Both the position numbers and the translations under genes were made by a program. From positions 2,490,001-2,522,000 of the forward strand of contig NC_009483.1 in NCBI RefSeq assembly GCF_000016745.1: 32,000 nucleotides of DNA. Reading direction: 5' to 3'. Positions 21,536 through 29,638 of the stretch are shown here, piece after piece (within the stretch, counting starts at the first letter, position 1; every line of letters begins with the position of its first letter). Under the pieces are notes generated by a model that was not told the DNA's origin, did not search any database, and saw only the letters and a program-made list of their open reading frames with translations. Source of the DNA: Geotalea uraniireducens Rf4 (GTDB lineage Bacteria > Desulfobacterota > Desulfuromonadia > Geobacterales > Geobacteraceae).

Positions 21536-21611
<76 letters not shown>

Positions 21612-21625
21612 ATTCAAGAAAGTTG

Positions 21626-21654
21626 TTTATATCAAAACTGCTTTAACGTGTCAA
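21626..21654 (-). promoter_or_regulatory. promoter of tRNA-Ala
   Basis: Minus strand TTGACA (21654-21649), 17-nt spacer, TATAAA (21631-21626), about 15 nt upstream of the mature 5' end. Confidence 0.55.
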
Positions 21655-21699
21655 TCATTTTCTCTCACATTTTTTCTCACATTAAAATCAATTTCCTGC

Positions 21700-21728
21700 T
21701 TGACCCGCTGACAGTCATTCGTTATAAT
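21700..21728 (+). promoter_or_regulatory. promoter of tRNA-Leu
   Basis: TTGACC (21700-21705), 17-nt spacer, consensus TATAAT (21723-21728), 15 nt upstream of the tRNA. Confidence 0.6.
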
Positions 21729-21743
21729 CGCCACACAATTTAC

Positions 21744-21830
21744 GCCGGAGTGGTGAAATTGGTAGACGCACTGGACTCAAAATCCAGCGGGAGCAATCCC
21801 ATGCCGGTTCGACCCCGGCCTCCGGCACCA
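21744..21830 (+). tRNA. tRNA-Leu (anticodon CAA), type II with long variable arm
   Basis: GCCGGAGTGGTGAAATTGGTAGACGCACTGGACTCAAAATCCAGCGGGAGCAATCCCATGCCGGTTCGACCCCGGCCTCCGGCACCA. Anticodon loop CT-CAA-AA, 7-bp acceptor stem, encoded CCA. Closely resembles enterobacterial tRNA-Leu. Confidence 0.93.
21808..21830 (+). repeat. proximal copy of the 23-nt direct repeat (3' end of tRNA-Leu), candidate att core
   Basis: TTCGACCCCGGCCTCCGGCACCA recurs at 29639-29660 with a single G deleted. Confidence 0.55.
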
Positions 21831-21864
21831 TTTAACAATCCGATAAAGTACGAAGCAGCATGCG

Positions 21865-21893
21865 AAGCCCTGAGAAATCAGGGCTTTTTGTTT
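21865..21893 (+). terminator. intrinsic terminator after tRNA-Leu; homing-site hairpin of the group II intron
   Basis: AAGCCCTGA-GAAA-TCAGGGCTT followed by TTTGTTT. The intron 5' end (GTGCG) begins immediately after it, and the T-run resumes (TTTTATTG) after the intron 3' end. Confidence 0.75.
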
Positions 21894-22495
21894 GTGCGCC
21901 AGGCATGGCGCGTGGCGCGTAAGCGCCATCCAATTGGGTATGGTGCCTGATTGGTGACTTGGAGGTGAAAGTCCTCTTCGGACCCTGATGGTGGGAACCG
22001 ATAGCTGAACAGCAAGGGTGTCCGGGGCGACCCGGAATCTGAAGGAAGCTGTAGGCAAAGTCCTGGCCCGACGAACAGGAATCGCATATGAGGCAGCCAC
22101 ATCTGGGCGAGAAGGCAAACAGATTCAAAGCCCGATAACCATCCAGAAAGATGTGGAAGTAGATGCGGCGGGTATATGGGATGAAGGTCACGCGCATTAC
22201 CCTGGGAGGTCTGTCAACCTGCCTTGTGCTACCGGCATCGAGAGGTGCCGGGATGGGTTGGCAGAAGTCAGCAGAGGCCATACGAGTCGGAATAACCGAC
22301 CGACAAAGGGCCGAACTTGAAGTAAGCGGACAGGAGCCTTGAGTTTCGATGACGACAGGAGCAGCAGAAGGCCGGGTTGGGATACCCGGCGCCAGCCCGG
22401 AGGGTAGCGGTTGGAAACCGCGAGAGAAAGGGAGAGGTGCGGCAAACGTCACGGGAAGGAAAGCAGCTCACTGGCCGGAAGCGGCAACGGGACTG

Positions 22496-23752
22496 ATGGA
22501 GAAGATCGTCAGTCGCGGCAACATGATGGCGGCATACTCACGGGTAATGCGCAACAAGGGAGCGCCCGGCGTCGATAACATGCCGGTAACGGCCCTGAAG
22601 GGCTACCTACAGGAGGAATGGCCGCGCATCAGAGAAGAACTGCTGACGGGAACGTATCACCCGCAACCGGTGCGGAAAGTAGAAATTCCCAAACCGGGAG
22701 GCGGCACACGGATGCTGGGAATTCCCACCGTCCTTGACCGACTCATTCAGCAGGCGGTGCATCAAGTTTTGAGCCCGCTGTTCGACCCTGGTTTCTCCAT
22801 AAGTTCCCACGGGTTTCGCCCTGGACGGAGCGCCCATCAAGCGATCAAGGCAGCTCGGAAGTATGTAGAGAGCGGCCTTAGGTGGGTGGTTGACATTGAC
22901 CTTGAGAAATTTTTCGACCGAGTCCACCACGACACCCTTATGTCGCTGGTGAAACGCAAGGTTGGAGACCGTCTGGTGCTGTCCCTTATCGACAGCTACC
23001 TTAAGGCAGGGATACTTGAAGGAGGAGTGACGTCACCCCGGTTGGAAGGCACGCCGCAAGGCGGGCCTCTCTCGCCGCTGCTGTCCAACATCCTCCTCGA
23101 CGAACTGGACAAGAAACTGGAAAGAAGGGGCCATAAGTTCTGCCGCTATGCCGACGACGCAAATATCTATGTTGCAACGAGGAGAAGCGGCGAGCGTGTC
23201 ATGGCCTCAATTACCGGCTACCTGTCCGAGCGGCTCAAGCTCACGGTCAACCAGGGCAAAAGCGCGGTTGACCGTCCGTGGAAAAGGTCGTTTCTGAGTT
23301 ACAGCATGACCCGGCACCGCAAACCGCGGCTTACCGTGGCCAAGAAAGCGGCTGCCAGGCTCAAGGCCAACCTCAAGACGATCTTTAGGCGGGGAAGGGG
23401 TCAGAACATCCAAACCACCGTTGAAGAGACAACCCCGAAACTTAGGGGTTGGTTAAACTACTTTCGGTACGCGGAAGTAAAAGGCATCTTCGAGGAACTG
23501 GACGGATGGCTGAGACGTAAACTGCGTCGCATTCTCTGGAAGCAGTGGAAGCGCCCCAAGACGCGAGCAAAGAAACTGATGCGGCGGGGATTATCGGAGG
23601 CAACTGCATGGCGGTCGGCCACAAACGGCCGCGGCCCCTGGTGGAATGCAGGGGCCGCGCATATGAACAAAGCTGTTCCGAAATTCTACTTCGACAAACT
23701 GGGGCTGGTATCACTCATAGACCAGCTTCACCGACTTCAACGTACTTCATGA
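22496..23752 (+). CDS. group II intron reverse transcriptase/maturase (no endonuclease domain)
   Basis: Start taken at MEKIVSRGNMMAAY (ATG 22496); the longer track ORF from 22349 runs through ribozyme sequence. RT blocks PKPGGGTRMLGIPTVLDRLIQQA, HGFRPGRSAHQA, DIDLEKFFDRVHHD, GTPQGGPLSPLLSNILL and the YADD box (FCRYADDANIYV). Maturase X motif is LRGWLNYFRYA. The C-terminus ends ...FDKLGLVSL with no HNH Cys motifs. Confidence 0.9.
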   Translation: MEKIVSRGNMMAAYSRVMRNKGAPGVDNMPVTALKGYLQEEWPRIREELLTGTYHPQPVRKVEIPKPGGGTRMLGIPTVLDRLIQQAVHQVLSPLFDPGFSISSHGFRPGRSAHQAIKAARKYVESGLRWVVDIDLEKFFDRVHHDTLMSLVKRKVGDRLVLSLIDSYLKAGILEGGVTSPRLEGTPQGGPLSPLLSNILLDELDKKLERRGHKFCRYADDANIYVATRRSGERVMASITGYLSERLKLTVNQGKSAVDRPWKRSFLSYSMTRHRKPRLTVAKKAAARLKANLKTIFRRGRGQNIQTTVEETTPKLRGWLNYFRYAEVKGIFEELDGWLRRKLRRILWKQWKRPKTRAKKLMRRGLSEATAWRSATNGRGPWWNAGAAHMNKAVPKFYFDKLGLVSLIDQLHRLQRTS

Positions 23753-23784
23753 ACCGCCGTGTACGGAACCGTACGCACGGTGGT
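23753..23784 (+). ncRNA. group II intron domain V
   Basis: ACCGCCGUGUACG-GAAC-CGUACGCACGGUGGU. Lower 5-bp helix contains a CGC triad with a G.U wobble. There is a 2-nt AC bulge on the 3' strand and a 7-bp upper helix. This is the canonical domain V architecture. Confidence 0.8.
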
Positions 23785-23786
23785 GT

Positions 23787-23820
23787 GGGAGGACGGCGGG
23801 AGCAATCCCGCCTCCTACCC
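23787..23820 (+). ncRNA. group II intron domain VI with bulged branch-point A (23817)
   Basis: GGGAGGA-C-GGCGGGA-GCAA-UCCCGCC-UCCU-A-CCC. GNRA-capped helix with a single unpaired A, 6 nt before the proposed 3' splice site. Confidence 0.7.
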
Positions 23821-23825
23821 GATTT

Positions 23826-24206
23826 TTATTGTCCGTCGTTATTAACCATCGACCGGAACTCAAGATATGAGCTATCATAATCGGTCATGCTGGCGTAGAT
23901 GTAACATGCGAATGTAAGTTCAGCCAGATTCATAAAAACTATTCCTCTTCTTGCGCAGCAACCGTCCAGATACGTTTCAAAGGCAACTCAGCCTTCAAAT
24001 CCTCATCAAGTTTGTCATAGTGGGCAAAGAGCTGATCAAGTAGTTCGTTCCGCGTCCAAAGGTGCACAGTAAAGAAACTCGCTGCCAGTTCTTTTTGTAC
24101 ATTGCTCTTATAACCACTCCAGGAAACAAATGGGCGGGACGCTCAGCAAAACTCTTTTTCGCTTACAATTTCGGGTTCCAAATGGTTTCCCTCAAGAAAA
24201 ACCATC
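23826..24206 (-). pseudogene. decayed small ORFs between the intron and the IS (one frame with an internal TGA, plus a 36-codon ORF)
   Basis: Minus-strand frame: MVFLEGNHLEPEIVSEKEFC-TGA-ASRPFVSWSGYKSNVQKELAASFFTVHLWTRNELLDQLFAHYDKLDEDLKAELPLKRIWTVAAQEEE (stop at 23939-23941). It is followed 6 nt later by MNLAELTFACYIYASMTDYDSSYLEFRSMVNNDGQ (stop at 23826-23828). No family recognised and no convincing SD. Confidence 0.3.
24199..24206. repeat. left copy of the 8-bp target-site duplication AAACCATC
   Basis: The identical octamer directly abuts both IS ends (24199-24206 and 25532-25539). Confidence 0.8.
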
Positions 24207-25531
24207 GAGGGTGTAAAAAGGTTTGTGTAAATGGTCATTAGGGGGTACACCAAGTTACCCTAAGGAGATCACATGACTATTAACACCGACGTAATCGACG
24301 ATCTACTCAAACATTATAAGACCCCCGAAGAGATTCTAGGGGAAAACGGGCTGCTGAAGCAGTTGACCAAGGCTGTTCTTCAGCGGGCGCTCCAGGCTGA
24401 AATGACACTGCACCTCGGCCACGAGAAGCATGCTTCCGTTTCCGCCAAAGGTGGCAATGCACGCAATGGCTCGTCGGCAAAGACCATCAAAGGCGATTTT
24501 GGCACCATGCCGATTGAGGTCCCTCGTGACCGGGATAGCAGCTTTGAACCAGTCATCATTCCCAAAGGCCAAACCCGGTTCGCCGAGTTCGATGATAAGA
24601 TTATCTCCCTGTACTCCCGCGGGCTTACCACTCGTGAGATCCAGGGACACTTGGAGGAAATCTACGGTGTTGAAGTATCCCCCGCTCTGATTTCAATAGT
24701 GACTGAAGCAGTAGCTGAAGAGGTCAAAGCTTGGCAGAACCGCCCGTTGGATGCGCTTTATCCCATCGTTTACATGGATGCCATCAGGGTCAAAGCCAGA
24801 GGCAATGGCCATGTTGTGAACAAGGCTGTCTATCTGGCCATCGGCATCAACATAGACGGTGCCAAGGAAGTTCTGGGAATGTGGGTCTCCGAAAACGAAG
24901 GAGCCAAGTTCTGGTTGCAGGTTGTGACCGAACTTAAGAACCGTGGTGTCCAAGACATCTTCATTGCCTGCGTTGACGGCCTGAAGGGGTTCCCTGAGGC
25001 CATAGAAATAGTTTATCCCAACACTCAAGTCCAACTTTGCATCGTCCATATGGTACGCAATTCCTTGAAGTTCGTTTCGTGGAAACAACGCAAAGAAGTT
25101 GCGACAGATTTGAAGGTTATCTACCAGTCAGCGACCGCTGAGCAGGCCGAAATGGAACTGACAGCATTTGAGGCAAAATGGGACAAAACACACCCGACGA
25201 TCAGCCAGTCCTGGCGCCGGAACTGGGCGCAAGTTATACCATTTTTTGCCTATCCAGCTGATATACGAAAGGTTATTTACACAACCAATGCCATTGAATC
25301 ACTGAATATGTCACTCAGAAAGGTGACCAAAAACCGGGGCTCGTTTCCCAATGATGAGGCAATGTTCAAGTTACTATACCTGGCGCTGAGAAACATCGCG
25401 AAGAAATGGACCCTGCCGATCAGAGACTGGAAAGCTGCCATGAACCGCTTTTCCATTCTTTTTGAAGACAGAATGCCAAGCTATTAAAAACAGGGAACCA
25501 AAACCATTTACACAAAACTATTGACAGGCCC
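24207..25531 (+). mobile_element. IS256-family insertion sequence (1325 bp)
   Basis: Single mutator-type transposase ORF. Imperfect 29-bp terminal inverted repeats: GAGGGTGTAAAAAGGTTTGTGTAAATGGT at 24207-24235, against the reverse complement of 25503-25531, GGGCCTGTCAATAGTTTTGTGTAAATGGT (22/29 identical). Flanked by an 8-bp direct repeat, the size expected for IS256-family elements. Confidence 0.88.
24273..25487 (+). CDS. IS256-family (mutator-type) DDE transposase
   Basis: 404 aa with AAGGAG SD. Conserved blocks LKQLTKAVLQRALQAEMTLHLG, IVYMDAIRVK (D), FIACVDGLKGFPEAI (D), IYTTNAIESLNMSLRK (E). Confidence 0.93.
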   Translation: MTINTDVIDDLLKHYKTPEEILGENGLLKQLTKAVLQRALQAEMTLHLGHEKHASVSAKGGNARNGSSAKTIKGDFGTMPIEVPRDRDSSFEPVIIPKGQTRFAEFDDKIISLYSRGLTTREIQGHLEEIYGVEVSPALISIVTEAVAEEVKAWQNRPLDALYPIVYMDAIRVKARGNGHVVNKAVYLAIGINIDGAKEVLGMWVSENEGAKFWLQVVTELKNRGVQDIFIACVDGLKGFPEAIEIVYPNTQVQLCIVHMVRNSLKFVSWKQRKEVATDLKVIYQSATAEQAEMELTAFEAKWDKTHPTISQSWRRNWAQVIPFFAYPADIRKVIYTTNAIESLNMSLRKVTKNRGSFPNDEAMFKLLYLALRNIAKKWTLPIRDWKAAMNRFSILFEDRMPSY

Positions 25532-25638: not shown

Positions 25639-26589
25639 CTATGGCCTTATCTCAACAATCGTACCATTTGGCGCTAACTTGGCAATTTCCTCTATTTCTT
25701 CGTCTGTTACGGCAATACACCCTTTCGTCCAGTCAACCTCTGTGTGAAAATCACCAACCCACGAGAAACCATTCTTAATTCCGTGGATCATGATGTTTCC
25801 GCCCGTAGAAACACCTAGTTCTTTTGCTCGCTTTTTGTCTCTCTCGTTTGGATAGGAAATATGAAGAGATAGGTGATAATGGCTGTCCTTGTTTCTTGAA
25901 TCGATGAAGTAGGTTCCCTCCGGGGTTTTGTTATCGCCTTGCCTTTCTTTTGGACCATTCGGGTTTCCCCCCAAGGCTATCTTGTAGGTTTTGAGCACCT
26001 CCCCCTTTGAGATCAACATCAATCGTCGTTCTTTTTTTTCTATCAGAATCTTATCTACCAATCCTTTCTGGATTGCAAAAGCAAAAACCTTTTGTTCTAG
26101 CGCTTTAATCTTTTTTTGCAGTGTAATAATTTCATTCCCCCTGCTTTCAACCTCTTGCTGGAGAGTCTCAATTTGTGTTTGCTGCGTGGTAATCATCTTA
26201 TCCTTGATAGTGACATTATTGATATAAAATATCATCCTCTCACTGTCCTGCCTGTACCCACTCCCTGGGTAGTCCTTTATGAGTTTCTGAAAACATTCCA
26301 GGGATTTCTGATAATCTTTTTGCTCATTCTTCGGATGCGCATAAATAATACCCATCTCGAATAGAACCCTGTCTCCCGTCGTGGGATATTTTTCAATAAT
26401 CTGCTCATATTTGTTCAGAGAGGCCTTGTAGTTTCCCTGGCTAAAAGAATTATTTGCTTCTTCGAAGGTTGACTTGGCCTGGAATCCTTCACTAAAGTGA
26501 CTGCATCCGCACATTAGAATTGATGTTATTATGATGCAGATAAAGAAAAAGAAAAGGTGCTCACCCTTCCTGCTTTGTTTTTTACCCAT
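25639..26589 (-). CDS. YafK/DpaA-like L,D-transpeptidase-fold lipoprotein with N-terminal TPR-like and coiled-coil region
   Basis: The C-terminal 150 aa, ERRLMLISKGEVLKTYKIALGGNPNGPKERQGDNKTPEGTYFI...YHLSLHISYPN...GGNIMIHG...DWTKGCIAVTDEEIEEI, match the YafK-type YkuD fold, including catalytic His and Cys. Start chosen at MGKKQSRKGEHLFFFFICIIITSILMCGC (26589, lipoprotein-like). ATG 26652 has a better SD (AAGGGGTGAGGAG), so the start is uncertain. Confidence 0.8.
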   Translation of the reverse strand: MGKKQSRKGEHLFFFFICIIITSILMCGCSHFSEGFQAKSTFEEANNSFSQGNYKASLNKYEQIIEKYPTTGDRVLFEMGIIYAHPKNEQKDYQKSLECFQKLIKDYPGSGYRQDSERMIFYINNVTIKDKMITTQQTQIETLQQEVESRGNEIITLQKKIKALEQKVFAFAIQKGLVDKILIEKKERRLMLISKGEVLKTYKIALGGNPNGPKERQGDNKTPEGTYFIDSRNKDSHYHLSLHISYPNERDKKRAKELGVSTGGNIMIHGIKNGFSWVGDFHTEVDWTKGCIAVTDEEIEEIAKLAPNGTIVEIRP

Positions 26590-26768
26590 ATATGTCAAAG
26601 ACGGTCTAAATCTTTTAGACAGTACAATTTGGAAGATTCTCAGTTCCCTCATCTCCTCACCCCTTGGCAGAAGCATCAGGAATATCTTGTGCTAAGAGCC
26701 TGATATCCTGGCTTAACAGGTTAAATGCTTGAGTCGTCCAGACAGACTTAAATGATGGATAAGGAAAT

Positions 26769-26843: not shown

Positions 26844-27122
26844 TTACTTCCTCATCGATTTCTGGAAAGCGGCGTCAGCTCTTTTCGCCTTTTCATCTGC
26901 GATCCTTTCCCTTTCCAATGCCGCCTTTTCAGCATCATCTGCCTTTAACTTGGCCACATCGGCTGCCGCCTTGGCAGCTTGCGCATCCTGCAATGCCTGA
27001 TCAGCTTTCGCATCAATCAGTTTTTGCTGCGCCTGCACTTTCTCGAGCTCACCGGTTGTTGCACAACCCATCATAGTAACGAGAACAAGCATCATTGAAA
27101 TCACCAAAAGACTTTTCTTCAT
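26844..27122 (-). CDS. Braun-lipoprotein-like small alpha-helical lipoprotein with C-terminal Lys
   Basis: 92 aa, strong SD (AAAGGAGGTG). Signal peptide ends ...LVTMMGC. The mature protein (about 73 aa) is Ala/Lys/Asp/Gln-rich with a heptad pattern (KVQAQQKLIDAKADQALQDAQAAKAAADVAKLKADDAEKAALE) and ends ...KSMRK. Compare E. coli Lpp, which ends ...TKYRK. Confidence 0.75.
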   Translation of the reverse strand: MKKSLLVISMMLVLVTMMGCATTGELEKVQAQQKLIDAKADQALQDAQAAKAAADVAKLKADDAEKAALERERIADEKAKRADAAFQKSMRK

Positions 27123-27301: not shown

Positions 27302-28621
27302 CTATCTCTTCTTGACAGGTTCAATCAATATACCGTCTATTTCCAAATCAATTTTCAAGCGTTTGGTTGCATCTTTGGCCTCACTGATATCATTGAAAGG
27401 GCCAGCGATAACACGGTAGCTATTGCTCTTTGATAACACCATTGCCGGGATTTGTGGACCCTGGTGGTTGATAATGGTGGCAATCCTCAGAGCTTCAATC
27501 TCGTCACGCACATCAGCAGCCAAAACATACCACGCCTCCATTTTCAGTTCTGGTATTTCCGGTCTGCCATACAATTTGTCTGGGTGCTCGACTTCTATGG
27601 TTCTCGAAGCCTCTTTTTCACTTCCTTGACTCATCTCGAAGATGGGAACAGGAATCCCTCGGGCCTCGGCCTGCACTTCCTTAACTTTTCTCCAGTCAAG
27701 CGTGCGCGCCGATTTCTTTTCAATATTTCTCAATTTTGCGTATGTCTTCTCTAGCTCAATAGCGCCCGAGTCTTCCAGAGGCGTATGAGCTTCCATGTAA
27801 AGTACTCCATTACGTTGACCTATGAGATATGGCTGGTTAACAATGACTACAGGGGTATTAACTGGAGTGTCATCGTAGAGCATCTTCACGTTTTCTGGAT
27901 ATAGTCTCAAGCAGCCATTGGTTGCTTTAAGACCAATGCTGGCAGGTTTATTAGTACCATGGATCAAATAACCCGATTTGCTTAAATAGAGCGCGCATTC
28001 TCCCAAGGGATTTTGAGGTCCCGGCGGAACTTCTGCGGGCAGAGGATCGCCTTTTTTTCTATGATCCTCAGAAATTGAAGCAGGCACATGCCAGGTCGGC
28101 CGGGTTGCCTTGCGCTCCACATGCATTTGACCTGTGGGCGTGGGTCGCTCCTTGGTTCCGACACCGACCGGGTAGGTCGACACCACCAGTGACTTACTAT
28201 CCCCTTTAAATTGAAAGAGCCTCATGGTGGCTAAGTTGACCACAATGCCTTTTCTGGGAGCGTCCGGCAGGATAAAACTCAGAGGCAACATGATACGCTC
28301 TCCGGCCTCAGGCACCCATACATCTACCCCTGGATTAGCTGCACTGATTGCAATGATCCCCAGACTGAAGTGTCTTGCAATATCCGGTAGCGTATCCCCC
28401 TTTTCAAGCCTGATGACTGCCAACCGACCAATGACGTCATCTCCTCTTGCAACCGAAAACTCATTTCGTTCGATCTCCTTTTCAGGATGGCTTGGAAAAA
28501 GCCAGGATTTCTCCTGAACACTGTTCATAACAGCACATCCATTGAGAGATAAGATGAATGTACATAGAGCTATAAGACGAAGCCAATTGGATAAGAGTGA
28601 CAGGTCAACGATTCGGCACAT
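27302..28621 (-). CDS. L,D-transpeptidase of the ErfK/YbiS/YcfS/YnhG type: lipoprotein signal, LysM-like, YkuD catalytic and C-terminal SPOR domains
   Basis: 439 aa. Signal/lipobox LIALCTFILSLNGC. LysM-like LEKGDTLPDIARHFSLGIIAISAANPGV. FILPDAPRKGIVVNLATMRLFQF...PTPTG...RPTWHVPASI...NPLGECALYL...YLIHGTNKPASIGLKATNGCLRL carries the catalytic His and Cys. SPOR-like AWYVLAADVRDEIEALRIA...YRVIAGPFNDISEAKDATKRL. Confidence 0.87.
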   Translation of the reverse strand: MCRIVDLSLLSNWLRLIALCTFILSLNGCAVMNSVQEKSWLFPSHPEKEIERNEFSVARGDDVIGRLAVIRLEKGDTLPDIARHFSLGIIAISAANPGVDVWVPEAGERIMLPLSFILPDAPRKGIVVNLATMRLFQFKGDSKSLVVSTYPVGVGTKERPTPTGQMHVERKATRPTWHVPASISEDHRKKGDPLPAEVPPGPQNPLGECALYLSKSGYLIHGTNKPASIGLKATNGCLRLYPENVKMLYDDTPVNTPVVIVNQPYLIGQRNGVLYMEAHTPLEDSGAIELEKTYAKLRNIEKKSARTLDWRKVKEVQAEARGIPVPIFEMSQGSEKEASRTIEVEHPDKLYGRPEIPELKMEAWYVLAADVRDEIEALRIATIINHQGPQIPAMVLSKSNSYRVIAGPFNDISEAKDATKRLKIDLEIDGILIEPVKKR

Positions 28622-28786
28622 GGGTTAAATAAGCTACCTTTCTCAAAAATGAAAATTAATATAAATAAAAGAAATAAAAGAAGAAATAAAAGAGTCAGCC
28701 CTTGACACGGGACAAATGGCCCCCCCTCAGCTCTATGCGTCTTTAAAAGCGCAGCTCTTGCTGACTCGACCTCCTTTTTATGTTTT

Positions 28787-28900
28787 GACAACAAAAAAGC
28801 CGGGACCGAATATCGTGTGATATTTCGGCAACCCGGCTGTCTCAGTGAGACCCTGTAGGCTTTCCGCCCCACCCTCGCGGATGGTTGAGTATTATCGTTT
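28787..28900 (-). promoter_or_regulatory. GEMM-I-like cyclic-dinucleotide riboswitch unit 1 (aptamer about 28822-28900, terminator 28787-28837)
   Basis: Minus strand: AAUACUCAACC-AUCC-GCGA-GGGU-GGGGCGGAAAGCCUACAGGGUCUCACUGAGACAGCCGGGUUGCCGAAAUAUC-ACAC-GAUAUUCGGUCCCGGC-UUUUUUGUUGU. It resembles the c-di-GMP-I aptamer core (GNRA hairpin, ACGCAAAGCC-like junction, AGCNGGGUURCCGA 3' segment). The terminator 5' arm is the aptamer 3' segment. Confidence 0.6.
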
Positions 28901-28971
28901 ATCACTAACCGTCATAATACGGTGCCCTTTAAAGGCGCACCTCTTGCTGACTCGACCTCCTTTTATGTTTT

Positions 28972-29085
28972 GACAACAAAAAAGCCGGGACCGAATATCG
29001 TGTGATATTTCGGCAACCCGGCTGTCTCAGTAAGACCCGTAGGCTTTCCGCCCCATTCTTGCGAATGGTTAAGTATTATCGTCTA
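28972..29085 (-). promoter_or_regulatory. GEMM-I-like cyclic-dinucleotide riboswitch unit 2 (aptamer about 29007-29085, terminator 28972-29022)
   Basis: Paralogous copy: AAUACUUAACC-AUUC-GCAA-GAAU-GGGGCGGAAAGCCUACGGGUCUUACUGAGACAGCCGGGUUGCCGAAAUAUC... with an identical terminator. Stem differences from unit 1 all preserve pairing. Confidence 0.6.
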
Positions 29086-29105
29086 TCTCTCAAACATTTT
29101 TTTGC

Positions 29106-29133
29106 ATCTTACATTTCTATAAAGATTTGTCAA
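29106..29133 (-). promoter_or_regulatory. candidate promoter for the riboswitch leader
   Basis: Minus strand TTGACA (29133-29128), 16-nt spacer, TAAGAT (29111-29106), about 25 nt upstream of aptamer 2. Pattern only. Confidence 0.3.
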
Positions 29134-29200
29134 CATTTTTCTAAAGTCCAGTTGAGGGACCAACGGATTCGGGGGAGCTTGCAACCAGGAAAAAGACAAT

Positions 29201-29369
29201 CTAGGAGCCTGTCGGACTTAGGAATGAATCTACTGCGAGAACGGAAAATCGGTCCATATTACCGGAAATTTTCGACAAATAGGTCCACTATTCGCTCTCA
29301 AATTTCCGATAATCTGTCCTCGATTTGCCATTCTCTCGCTACGATTCCCTAAGTCCGACAGACTCCTAG
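29201..29369. mobile_element. MITE-like palindromic element (169 bp) with 22-bp terminal inverted repeats
   Basis: CTAGGAGCCTGTCGGACTTAGG (29201-29222) against CCTAAGTCCGACAGACTCCTAG (29348-29369), 21/22 complementary. There is also an internal inverted repeat (GGTCCATATTACCGGAAATTT against its complement near 29310-29331). No ORF. The terminal CTAG could instead be a 4-bp target duplication. Confidence 0.45.
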
Positions 29370-29638
29370 GGCATGCTTACCTAGGTGGACAAAAAAGCCA
29401 AGTACCTTATCGACATTCTAGGTGAAGGTGGAATTGCAAGCATCGCTGGAAAAAAAGGAACAAAATCCCCCCTCTGCCCCCCCAGGTATAACAAGTAATC
29501 GCGATGATTCTGGAATGTTCATAAGGTAAAGATCGAAGGCGTAAAAGGAGTAAGCTAAATCGTATGAGGGTATTTTGGGGGGATGTAACAAAATTCAACT
29601 TACAGTTTGCTATTGATATCAATAAGTTAATCAAGTTA

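Follow-up and report, generated by a model that had tools for sequence, protein, structure and literature searches.

The leader of a putative L,D-transpeptidase gene in Geotalea uraniireducens Rf4 raises the question of whether a duplicated segment upstream of the gene acts as one regulatory element or two, and which cyclic dinucleotide it senses. In the window (the whole 32,000-nt stretch of DNA analysed), the minus strand between a promoter (29133-29106) and the gene at 27302-28621 contained two units of approximately 185 nt each. We conclude that this leader very probably contains two GEMM-Ib riboswitches, each complete and independent of the other, arranged one after the other ahead of a three-gene envelope operon. 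Unit 1 is the promoter-proximal unit (GCAA loop) and unit 2 the gene-proximal unit (GCGA loop), the reverse of the numbering used in a preliminary description of this DNA.

The direct duplication of about 185 nt in that description was borne out, with the two units displaying 93% identity over 188 alignment columns and a repeat search returning three collinear direct-repeat blocks spaced 184-186 nt apart. One block of 78 nt was 99% identical, its single mismatch lying in the aptamer hairpin and not in the terminator, and both approaches agreed that the terminators, as had been claimed, and the sequence 3' of them do not differ between units 1 and 2. Every sequence element named in the preliminary description was found at its place on the minus strand (Table 1). 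The differences that do exist between the stems keep pairing, again as described. In the tetraloop stem one U-A pair of unit 1 is C-G in unit 2 (changed on both sides) and another is U.G, the loop changing from GCAA to GCGA and so staying of the GNRA type, and in the short hairpin a U.G pair is replaced by C-G.

Table 1. Positions of the leader elements and of the downstream genes in the window.
Feature	Sequence or description	Position	Strand	Support
Sigma-70-type promoter	TTGACA (29133-29128), 16-nt spacer, TAAGAT (29111-29106)	29106..29133	-	10/12 consensus positions
Aptamer 1	Promoter-proximal, GEMM-Ib type	29004..29087	-	RF01051 match 29084-29009
GNRA hairpin, unit 1	CCAUUC-GCAA-GAAUGG	29068-29053	-	
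Segment following the GNRA hairpin	GGCGGAAAGCC	29052-29042 (unit 1), 28868-28858 (unit 2)	-	
Short hairpin, unit 1	GUCUU-ACU-GAGAC	29036-29024	-	
Terminator 5' arm	GCCGGGUUGCCGAAAUAUC	29022-29004 (unit 1), 28837-28819 (unit 2)	-	
Terminator 3' arm	GAUAUUCGGUCCCGGC then U6	28999-28978 (unit 1), 28814-28793 (unit 2)	-	
Intrinsic terminator 1	GCCGGGUUGCCGAAAUAUC, loop ACAC, GAUAUUCGGUCCCGGC, U6 (28983-28978)	28978..29022	-	Folding
Inter-unit spacer	GUUGUCAAAACAUAAAAGGAGGUCGAGUCAGCAAGAGGUGCGCCUUUAAAGGGCACC...	28904..28977	-	
Aptamer 2	Gene-proximal, GEMM-Ib type	28819..28903	-	RF01051 match 28900-28824
GNRA hairpin, unit 2	CCAUCC-GCGA-GGGUGG	28884-28869	-	
Short hairpin, unit 2	GUCUC-ACU-GAGAC	28851-28839	-	
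Intrinsic terminator 2	Same sequence as terminator 1, U6 28798-28793	28793..28837	-	Repeat block, folding
3' leader	To the start codon	28622..28792	-	
Gene 1	439-aa lipoprotein L,D-transpeptidase, YkuD + SPOR	27302..28621	-	Pfam YkuD 2.6e-22, SPOR 2.7e-07
Gene 2	92-aa Lpp-like alanine-zipper lipoprotein	26844..27122	-	Pfam Alanine_zipper 5.8e-11
Gene 3	345-aa L,D-transpeptidase, TPR + YkuD	25639..26676	-	Pfam YkuD 2.7e-19, TPR/YfiO matches

The covariance-model check proposed at the outset was performed with Infernal on the whole 32-kb window against 4227 Rfam families. Both units exceeded the gathering score of the c-di-GMP-I family (RF01051; 35 bits) and aligned to the full model (positions 1-87 of 87), aptamer 1 with 51.9 bits (E 1.5e-07) and aptamer 2 with 42.6 bits (E 2.7e-05). 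The three-helix junction (P1, GNRA-capped P2 and P3) can pair in both units, with P1 of aptamer 1 formed by GAUA..CG with CG..UAUC and zero non-canonical pairs flagged in the RF01051 alignment of unit 1. Shuffled sequences folded far worse than either unit (z-scores -5.9 and -4.8, with fold z-scores of -4.5 to -5.9 overall), and taken together with the RF01051 E-values this places the tandem units well beyond chance. In a permissive search the marginally top-scoring member of the clan was c-di-GMP-I-GGC (RF03167), with the outermost P1 pair alone flagged as non-canonical in both units. Membership of this family was rejected, as the scores (52.4 and 43.9 bits) lie under its gathering score of 59 and its consensus has a G at the A47 equivalent (GACGC-G-AA), where both units have an A.

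Structural conservation was also assessed in a comparative set of 48 aptamers, drawn from the window and from 25 of the 26 orthologous leaders that bear riboswitches. Across the related aptamers (n = 47 distinct), 97.1% of cells were paired compared to 35-45% with slid partners. Compensatory change was observed at two base pairs only within this closely related set; the orthologues are too similar to one another to give strong covariation, and the structural support consequently comes mainly from the Rfam model.

Each unit carries its own intrinsic terminator. The 19-nt 5' arm of terminator 1 (29022-29004) comprises the 3' strand of aptamer helix P3, the J3/1 segment with the C92 equivalent, and the 3' strand of P1, so that terminator and aptamer share strands and are mutually exclusive, as they are in unit 2. 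Folding thereby confirmed the earlier statement that the 5' arm of each terminator is the 3' strand of its aptamer. The terminator hairpin has a predicted energy of -23.6 kcal/mol, and the minimum free energy with the terminator compared to that with the aptamer enforced was -42.0 vs -20.7 kcal/mol for unit 1 and -45.4 vs -26.2 kcal/mol for unit 2. Both terminators are evident on folding but were missed by a simple terminator scan, as their stems are bulged. The leader holds two complete aptamers, each with a separate terminator, which makes the arrangement a tandem one, and the overlap of terminator and aptamer strands predicts two ON switches in series, a reading that had been put forward before and that holds.

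The TTGACA/TAAGAT site was the sole promoter-like site returned by a sigma-70-type scan of the minus strand from 28400 to 29500. Almost every orthologous leader keeps TTGACA and a -10-like hexamer at this distance 5' of its first aptamer, and transcription would be expected to start near 29099, approximately 10 nt 5' of aptamer 1. The same scan detected no sigma-70-like promoter between or after the units, including 28622..28792, although this 171-nt 3' leader could hold a promoter of a type outside such a scan. The inter-unit spacer gave no Rfam match at E<=1. Its sequence is conserved among the orthologous leaders, most of which carry a version approximately 33 nt longer. The 3' leader contains a second copy of the first approximately 60 nt of the spacer, a G-rich/GUCAAGGGCUGAC segment and a U-rich tract, as well as a conserved GAGAAAGG (28644-28637) whose final base lies 15 nt 5' of the AUG. 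No significant structure was detected in these 171 nt (z -0.95), and a third, degenerate aptamer was rejected there with no match at E<=1. Two relatives with a 99% identical protein (L081 and L082) lack approximately 127 nt of the 3' leader, a portion specific to this strain. An exact-sequence look-up of the first gene's L,D-transpeptidase gave no match, and a relative with 99% protein identity (P0001) yielded two contigs, which start approximately 550-590 nt upstream of the gene. Two open reading frames overlapping the leader were rejected as genes. A 111-aa frame with a GTG start (28570-28905, minus strand) spans aptamer 2 and terminator 2 and is broken in the 99%-identity relatives by the 127-nt indel, which is not a multiple of three; a 116-aa frame (29002-29352, plus strand) has no Pfam match.

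Domain analysis with Pfam (YkuD and SPOR) supports the original assignment of the first downstream gene as an L,D-transpeptidase. Its product has an N-terminal signal peptide and a lipobox (LNGC). The product of the second gene has the lipobox MMGC and a C-terminus ending in ...SMRK. Two YkuD L,D-transpeptidase genes flank this small lipoprotein gene, whose product ends in Lys, and the operon probably tethers the Lpp-like lipoprotein to peptidoglycan. This content would link a surface-attached, metal-respiring lifestyle with envelope architecture.

In Vc2, G20 pairs with G-alpha of c-di-GMP, A47 intercalates and C92 forms a Watson-Crick contact, and a G20 to A change is the published hallmark of GEMM-Ib (3',3'-cGAMP) aptamers, with Gs1761 displaying A14, A41 and C75. 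The column equivalent to G20 had been judged unassignable by eye; a MAFFT alignment checked base by base settled it as A in both units (A29074 in unit 1 and A28890 in unit 2), with the RF01051 consensus AAaGGCAAAcc aligned to AAUACUUAACC and AAUACUCAACC. The A47 equivalents are A29047 and A28863 and the C92 equivalents C29013 and C28828 in units 1 and 2, respectively. Neither unit has the G at the G20 position of a canonical c-di-GMP-selective GEMM-I aptamer, and both show the GEMM-Ib sequence combination, in which this position is A and the equivalents of A47 and C92 are retained. The suspicion that these Geobacter-type GEMM-I elements sense cGAMP is upheld at the sequence level by this A/A/C signature in both units.

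Riboswitches were present upstream in 26 of the 80 best orthologous loci (one copy, n = 6; two copies, n = 19; three copies, n = 1), always on the strand of the gene and nearly all with terminators. No phylum label other than the one to which the Geobacterales belong occurred among these 26 loci. The nearest relatives of the locus are Geobacteraceae, the best genome match standing at 89% at the protein level. Copy number and leader length change fast, even between strains with a 99% identical protein. This variation between one and three copies, the leader indels, and the 100% identity of the terminator and following spacer, which indicates a recent duplication or gene conversion, would also fit a scenario in which one or both units are degenerating leftovers of a recent duplication and have no part in regulation. 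We consider this extremely unlikely, since both units give full-length, above-threshold Rfam matches with binding-pocket residues and terminators intact, the differences between them preserve pairing, doublets occur in 19 other loci, and the orthologous pair in G. sulfurreducens is functional in vivo.

The same orthologous leaders bear on whether the two units are interchangeable. In related leaders the upstream and proximal units are of distinct types, and in five of them the selectivity position is G in the proximal unit and A in the upstream unit, so that this leader family might integrate two messengers or two thresholds. That the units are non-redundant, with the leader family integrating cGAMP AND c-di-GMP or two thresholds, is a proposition to which we give little credence; were it true here, the difference in the tetraloop stem and the extra A in J2/3 would have to alter how tightly or how selectively one unit binds its ligand. 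For the units of the window themselves, approximately 10 aptamer positions differ, including the tetraloop stem, GCAA vs GCGA, an inserted A in J2/3 and model position 14, and a difference in ligand preference or affinity would turn the leader into a two-input or two-threshold gate. Such non-equivalence is very improbable, however, as the selectivity position is A in both and their binding-pocket residues are identical, and the differences lie in peripheral helices with pairing preserved. In several genomes the units within a leader have been homogenised, which also suggests equivalence.

An A in the G20 column is not in itself sufficient to ensure cGAMP selectivity. The Vc2 G20A mutant binds cGAMP and c-di-GMP about equally, even Gs1761 accepts c-di-GMP by protonating its adenine, bispecific natural A-variants exist (e.g., Cbe 1-2, which binds both ligands), and selectivity can also be shifted by point changes low in P2. 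Near-identity to validated cGAMP aptamers, together with the G. sulfurreducens orthologue, leads us to infer 3',3'-cGAMP as the ligand of both aptamers. The aptamer of the G. metallireducens pilM riboswitch, a cGAMP-binding transcriptional ON switch with a KD of approximately 0.25 uM (Landgraf et al., 2022, NAR, PMC9262584), has 93.7% identity to unit 2 (74/79 columns) and 86.1% identity to unit 1. In G. sulfurreducens, the tandem riboswitches GSUR3001/GSUR3002 (GSU0183a/b) precede GSU0183-0182-0181 (Hallberg et al., 2019, eLife, PMC6456294), and expression in the wild type, the esnD deletion and the gacA deletion was 53/96/3 for GSU0183, 175/286/7 for GSU0182 and 128/219/6 for GSU0181 (PMC6456294). 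Deletion of gacA, which encodes the cGAMP synthase, changed GSU0183-0181 by log2 -4.1 to -4.6, a drop of approximately 16-fold (PMC6456294), and GSU0183 is also among the listed cGAMP-riboswitch transcripts. Geobacteraceae are a lineage known to use GacA (Hallberg et al., 2019, PMC6456294); no gene for a cGAMP synthase (a Hypr GGDEF protein such as GacA) was found within the 32-kb window.

A physiological ligand of c-di-GMP, or of c-di-GMP together with cGAMP, would leave the architecture and the ON logic unchanged. It is suggested by the family match itself, which is to c-di-GMP-I, by the annotation of the G. sulfurreducens orthologues as 'cyclic diguanylate-responsive riboswitch', and by the bispecific G20A mutant and natural A-variants described above. 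We regard it as unlikely given the A at the selectivity position of both units, the similarity to the pilM aptamer, which is used as a cGAMP switch, and the related Gm0970 aptamer, which is reported to be approximately 1600-fold cGAMP-selective. The expression data argue in the same direction, as c-di-GMP was unchanged in the gacA deletion in which the operon fell and lower in the esnD deletion in which it rose.

With 3',3'-cGAMP as the preferred ligand, transcription would start near 29099 from the TTGACA/TAAGAT promoter and each aptamer would either bind cGAMP or remain free as it emerges. Binding would lock P1, J3/1 and the 3' strand of P3 in the aptamer, blocking the terminator and allowing read-through. 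Without ligand the terminator hairpin should form, because it is approximately 20 kcal/mol more stable than the aptamer fold, and transcription would stop at the U6 tract (28983-28978 or 28798-28793). A full-length mRNA would need read-through at both terminators, so that output should approximate one binding curve multiplied by the other. Very little basal expression, a wider dynamic range and a sharper rise with increasing cGAMP would follow. This dose-response shape is predicted by analogy to other tandem riboswitches. In a survey of tandem c-di-GMP-I riboswitches 347 doublets and 12 triplets were described (Sherlock et al., 2022, RNA Biol, PMC9481103), and more digital responses are documented for tandem riboswitches of the same class with separate terminators (PMC9481103). 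The Bacillus thuringiensis triplet ('pseudo-cooperative') resembles the pair in the window in that a single leader contains several complete riboswitches of the same class, every one followed by a terminator of its own. The surveyed riboswitches are described as c-di-GMP sensors, whereas the pair in the window is of the cGAMP variant.

Among single aptamers, Vibrio cholerae Vc2 has in common with both units a three-helix junction, a P2 capped by a GNRA loop, the residues corresponding to A47 and C92, and the conserved stretches GGCAAACC.../ACGCAAAGCC/AGC.GGG.U.CCGA. Vc2 binds c-di-GMP with a G at position 20, where both units have A. P3 is also approximately 12 nt shorter here, 15 model positions being replaced by 3, and the pairs closing P2 are C-G and U.G compared to G-C and C-G in Vc2. 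Gs1761 (pgcA; crystal structure 4YAZ) was compared by contact residues and spacing. The spacing of A14, A41 and C75 (27 and 34 nt) is exactly that of unit 1, and P3 is compact in Gs1761 and in the window units, although Gs1761 is a single riboswitch ahead of a cytochrome gene. The pilM terminator sequesters the ligand-pairing C (PMC9262584), and as in both units its 5' arm includes this C and the 3' strand of P1. The published pilM construct differs in being a single unit ahead of a pilus-assembly operon and in having a terminator loop and 3' arm of other sequence.

The closest known system is the GSUR3001/3002 pair, from a species that lay outside the 80 best loci and 120 best proteins compared. 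Orthology of the first gene to GSU0183 is indicated by domain architecture, gene order, taxonomy and annotation. The GSU0183-0181 operon has the same three-gene layout of a YkuD+SPOR lipoprotein L,D-transpeptidase, a small lipoprotein (GSU0182, 'lipoprotein') and a YkuD+TPR L,D-transpeptidase, and the ON logic of that operon is common with the logic predicted here. The two riboswitches occupy the same strand and operon-relative position and are approximately 200 nt apart compared to 185 nt in the window, and the annotation of the proximal riboswitch ends approximately 30 nt before the start codon, whereas the proximal terminator here ends 171 nt before it. Both G. sulfurreducens operons named with the 16-fold drop have tandem riboswitches upstream (PMC6456294). 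The tandem arrangement ahead of this operon is already known, since the G. sulfurreducens pair is annotated and GacA-dependent, and the locus in the window adds another representative and not a new principle. It would be a further case of the tight control that cGAMP signalling exerts over an envelope operon in the Geobacter lineage, although this was visible earlier in the G. sulfurreducens RNA-seq data, and it provides a well-annotated example with a comparative aptamer set, of modest practical value, to stand beside GSUR3001/3002.

The leader of the L,D-transpeptidase gene (minus strand, 29133-28622) contained two tandem units, the sequence of which matched the preliminary description exactly, and both were assigned to the c-di-GMP-I (GEMM-I) family (RF01051) when the entire window was scanned against Rfam 15 with gathering cut-offs. 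Numbering here runs from the promoter, and the gene-proximal copy, previously called unit 1, is unit 2. A permissive search of a 700-nt region gave scores for the clan member c-di-GMP-I-GGC (RF03167; 52.4 and 43.9 bits) marginally above those for RF01051; membership in RF03167 was rejected because these scores were below its own threshold of 59 and its consensus differs from both units at the A47 position (G in the consensus, A in the units). No third aptamer was detected at E<=1 in the same permissive search. Three collinear direct-repeat blocks with start-to-start distances of 184, 185 and 186 nt were found by a repeat search of the leader, and pairwise alignment showed 93% identity between the two units (each ~186 nt). 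The aptamer 3' half, the terminator and ~60 nt further were essentially identical in both copies, with differences concentrated in the aptamer 5' half. From unit 1 to unit 2 the tetraloop changed from GCAA to GCGA; in its stem one U-A pair became C-G, with a change on either side, and another U-A became U.G, and in the short hairpin U.G became C-G; all stem changes kept pairing, as had been claimed.

An A stood opposite the conserved G before the first P2 pair in each of the two Rfam alignments, the consensus AAaGGCAAAcc corresponding to AAUACUUAACC and AAUACUCAACC in the two units. The Vibrio cholerae riboswitch Vc2 pairs its G20 with G-alpha and its C92 with G-beta of c-di-GMP, with A47 intercalating. 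Riboswitches for cGAMP (GEMM-Ib) have A in place of G20, and a 2022 survey told c-di-GMP aptamers apart from those for c-AMP-GMP by this G/A position (Sherlock et al., PMC9481103). The equivalents in the crystallized cGAMP riboswitch Gs1761 are A14, A41 and C75, and the 27- and 34-nt spacings between these pocket residues are exactly those of unit 1. At the level of sequence, the case for both units being cGAMP sensors rests most strongly on their near-identity to the G. metallireducens pilM riboswitch, a transcriptional ON switch that binds c-GAMP with a KD of about 0.25 uM (Landgraf et al. 2022, PMC9262584). Over 79 aptamer columns the pilM aptamer, taken from the full sequence in the supplement of that study, has 93.7% identity with unit 2 and 86.1% with unit 1, and its pocket residues and terminator design are the same as in both units. 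An A at the G20-equivalent position may also allow bispecific binding, and the remaining uncertainty is one of selectivity. The preliminary observation was confirmed and its interpretation supported, with one refinement: 3',3'-cGAMP, and not c-di-GMP, is the most probable ligand.

Each aptamer is followed by GCCGGGUUGCCGAAAUAUC, a loop ACAC, GAUAUUCGGUCCCGGC and then U6. The 19-nt terminator 5' arm consists of the P3 3' strand, J3/1 (including the C92 equivalent) and the P1 3' strand, so the aptamer and the terminator cannot form at the same time. Minimum free energies with the terminator were -42.0 (unit 1) and -45.4 kcal/mol (unit 2), compared to -20.7 and -26.2 kcal/mol with the Rfam-type aptamer fold enforced; fold z-scores against shuffles were -4.5 to -5.9. 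Since the terminator fold is the more stable, termination is the predicted default and read-through would need a ligand-stabilised aptamer, which makes each unit an ON switch on this folding model. The established ON switch pilM has a terminator that likewise captures the ligand-pairing C (PMC9262584). With a predicted terminator for each aptamer, the earlier proposal of two ON switches in series was upheld; full-length mRNA would depend on two independent read-through events, in line with tandem systems described as 'pseudo-cooperative' (PMC9481103).

Features of the operon, its leader and flanks, and related units at other loci
Feature	Position	Strand	Details
MITE-like element	29201-29369		169 bp
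Sigma-70-like promoter	29133-29106	-	TTGACA-16-TAAGAT; only such site on this strand in 28400-29500
RF01051 match, unit 1	29084-29009	-	51.9 bits, E 1.5e-07, model positions 1-87, gathering score 35
RF01051 match, unit 2	28900-28824	-	42.6 bits, E 2.7e-05, model positions 1-87, gathering score 35
Vc2 G20 equivalent	A29074 (unit 1), A28890 (unit 2)	-	checked base by base
Vc2 A47 equivalent	A29047 (unit 1), A28863 (unit 2)	-	checked base by base
Vc2 C92 equivalent	C29013 (unit 1), C28828 (unit 2)	-	checked base by base
Inter-unit spacer	28904-28977	-	GUUGUCAAAACAUAAAAGGAGGUCGAGUCAGCAAGAGGUGCGCCUUUAAAGGGC...
Segment absent from L081/L082	28660-28786	-	~127 nt
Motif GAGAAAGGU	28637-28644	-	
Lipoprotein with YkuD and SPOR domains	27302-28621	-	439 aa; first gene downstream of riboswitches
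Alanine-zipper Lpp-like lipoprotein	26844-27122	-	92 aa, ends ...SMRK; second gene
TPR+YkuD protein	25639-26676	-	third gene
Mobile-element patch	21539-25487		
tRNA gene	21539-21611	-	within patch
tRNA gene	21744-21827	+	within patch
Group II intron	22021-23823		reverse-transcriptase/maturase ORF 22349-23752
IS256/Mutator-family transposase	24273-25487		within patch
G-carrying gene-proximal units	L002:2858-2934, L013:2835-2911, L024:2841-2916, L044:2833-2910, L029:4-80		orthologous leaders
Further RF01051 match	L024:5993-6072		47.7 bits; G at selectivity position

Transcription was predicted from the promoter to start ~10 nt before aptamer 1, and nearly all orthologous leaders keep TTGACA and a -10-like hexamer at equal distance upstream of the first aptamer. 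The MITE-like element, ~70 nt further upstream of this promoter, has terminal inverted repeats of 22 nt that are 95% complementary, and a further inverted repeat of 17 nt in its interior. On L081 and L082, two contigs with a 99% identical protein, the sequence is unrelated to the window from exactly this point outward. The same contigs carry both units and lack a stretch of ~127 nt that lies in the window after terminator 2 and before the ribosome-binding region, which makes the window's long 3' leader a strain-level variant. At its start this 3' leader repeats the inter-unit spacer, and after this second copy comes a G-rich/GUCAAGGGCUGAC element present too in the leaders of three other loci (L020, L026, L049); folding gave no significant structure in the segment. 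The spacer itself is conserved in sequence across genomes and has a Shine-Dalgarno-like GGAGG with no suitably spaced start codon; most orthologous spacers have an extra AUGCCGG...CGGCAU hairpin (~33 nt), which the window lacks. The GAGAAAGGU motif is strongly conserved in orthologues, its last G lying ~15 nt upstream of the AUG, a distance greater than normal Shine-Dalgarno spacing. An upstream start is excluded: two codons ahead of the AUG the frame is closed by a UAA. Many gene callers start the protein at Met32 (408 aa), which would lose the lipoprotein signal peptide.

We searched the 80 best loci from a one-genome-per-species scan (proteins 71-89% identical to the L,D-transpeptidase); in 26 of them the gene is preceded by RF01051 matches, always on its strand. 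Two units were present in 19 loci, three in one (L002) and one in six, two of which abut a contig end; L070, a further locus outside these six, also has one. Copy number among relatives runs from 1 to 3. The riboswitch-bearing records were labelled Geobacteraceae, Geobacter, Geotalea, Pelobacter, Geobacterales, Desulfuromonadaceae or 'uncultured delta proteobacterium', and no upstream match was found in those of the 80 labelled Nitrospirota, Thermodesulfovibrionia, Syntrophorhabdus or Desulfobacterales. Metagenome-assembled genomes with the latter labels (many of L015-L080) encode a YkuD+SPOR L,D-transpeptidase 71-82% identical to that of the window, unusually high across phyla; mislabelled bins or horizontal transfer may be the cause. 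The terminator design was common to nearly all units. Pairing was seen in 97% of cells over the 47 distinct aptamers, compared to 35-45% with slid partners, and compensatory change was seen in only two pairs because the set is very conserved.

The gene-proximal unit of five orthologous leaders is of the canonical c-di-GMP type at the selectivity position, with a G (GAUAAUGCU); upstream unit(s) carry A in four of these, and the fifth (L029) abuts a contig end. Leaders of this type could, from their sequence, be natural two-input cGAMP AND c-di-GMP tandems, a pairing absent from the 2022 tandem-riboswitch survey (PMC9481103). One of these loci, L024, has a further, more divergent match downstream of the transpeptidase operon that presumably regulates the next gene. 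In leaders of several genomes (L007, L012, L062, L071, L079) tetraloop-stem variants are common to both units and not to positional equivalents elsewhere, which suggests gene conversion between tandem copies.

Three genes lie downstream of the riboswitches. In E. coli, Lpp is linked to peptidoglycan through its C-terminal lysine by YkuD-family enzymes, and by this analogy we infer that the operon would control outer membrane-peptidoglycan tethering. The mobile-element patch adjoins the operon, cydAB lies upstream on the same strand, and otherwise the window consists of ordinary chromosomal genes (EF-P, purine synthesis with AIR synthase-related and formyl transferase domains, dihydroorotate dehydrogenase).

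Hallberg et al. (2019, PMC6456294) reported 17 GEMM-I riboswitches, including several tandem ones, for G. sulfurreducens, and the GSU0183-0181 operon of this species has the same gene order, domain architecture and tandem leader as the window. The supplementary table of that study lists GSU0182 as 'lipoprotein' and GSU0181 as '...YkuD family, TPR domain-containing', with two riboswitches upstream of them, GSUR3001 (197761-197876) and GSUR3002 (197961-198075). For GSU0183, GSU0182 and GSU0181, respectively, expression in wild type/esnD deletion/gacA deletion was 53/96/3, 175/286/7 and 128/219/6, and for the two riboswitch regions it was 56/115/7 and 47/91/7 (PMC6456294). GSU0183 was also among the cGAMP-riboswitch transcripts of a 2022 study. 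Four aspects of the arrangement are already known: its fold, from Rfam; the occurrence of the cGAMP variant in Geobacter; the use of such units in tandem (347 doublets catalogued; PMC9481103); and, in G. sulfurreducens, a tandem pair ahead of this same operon.
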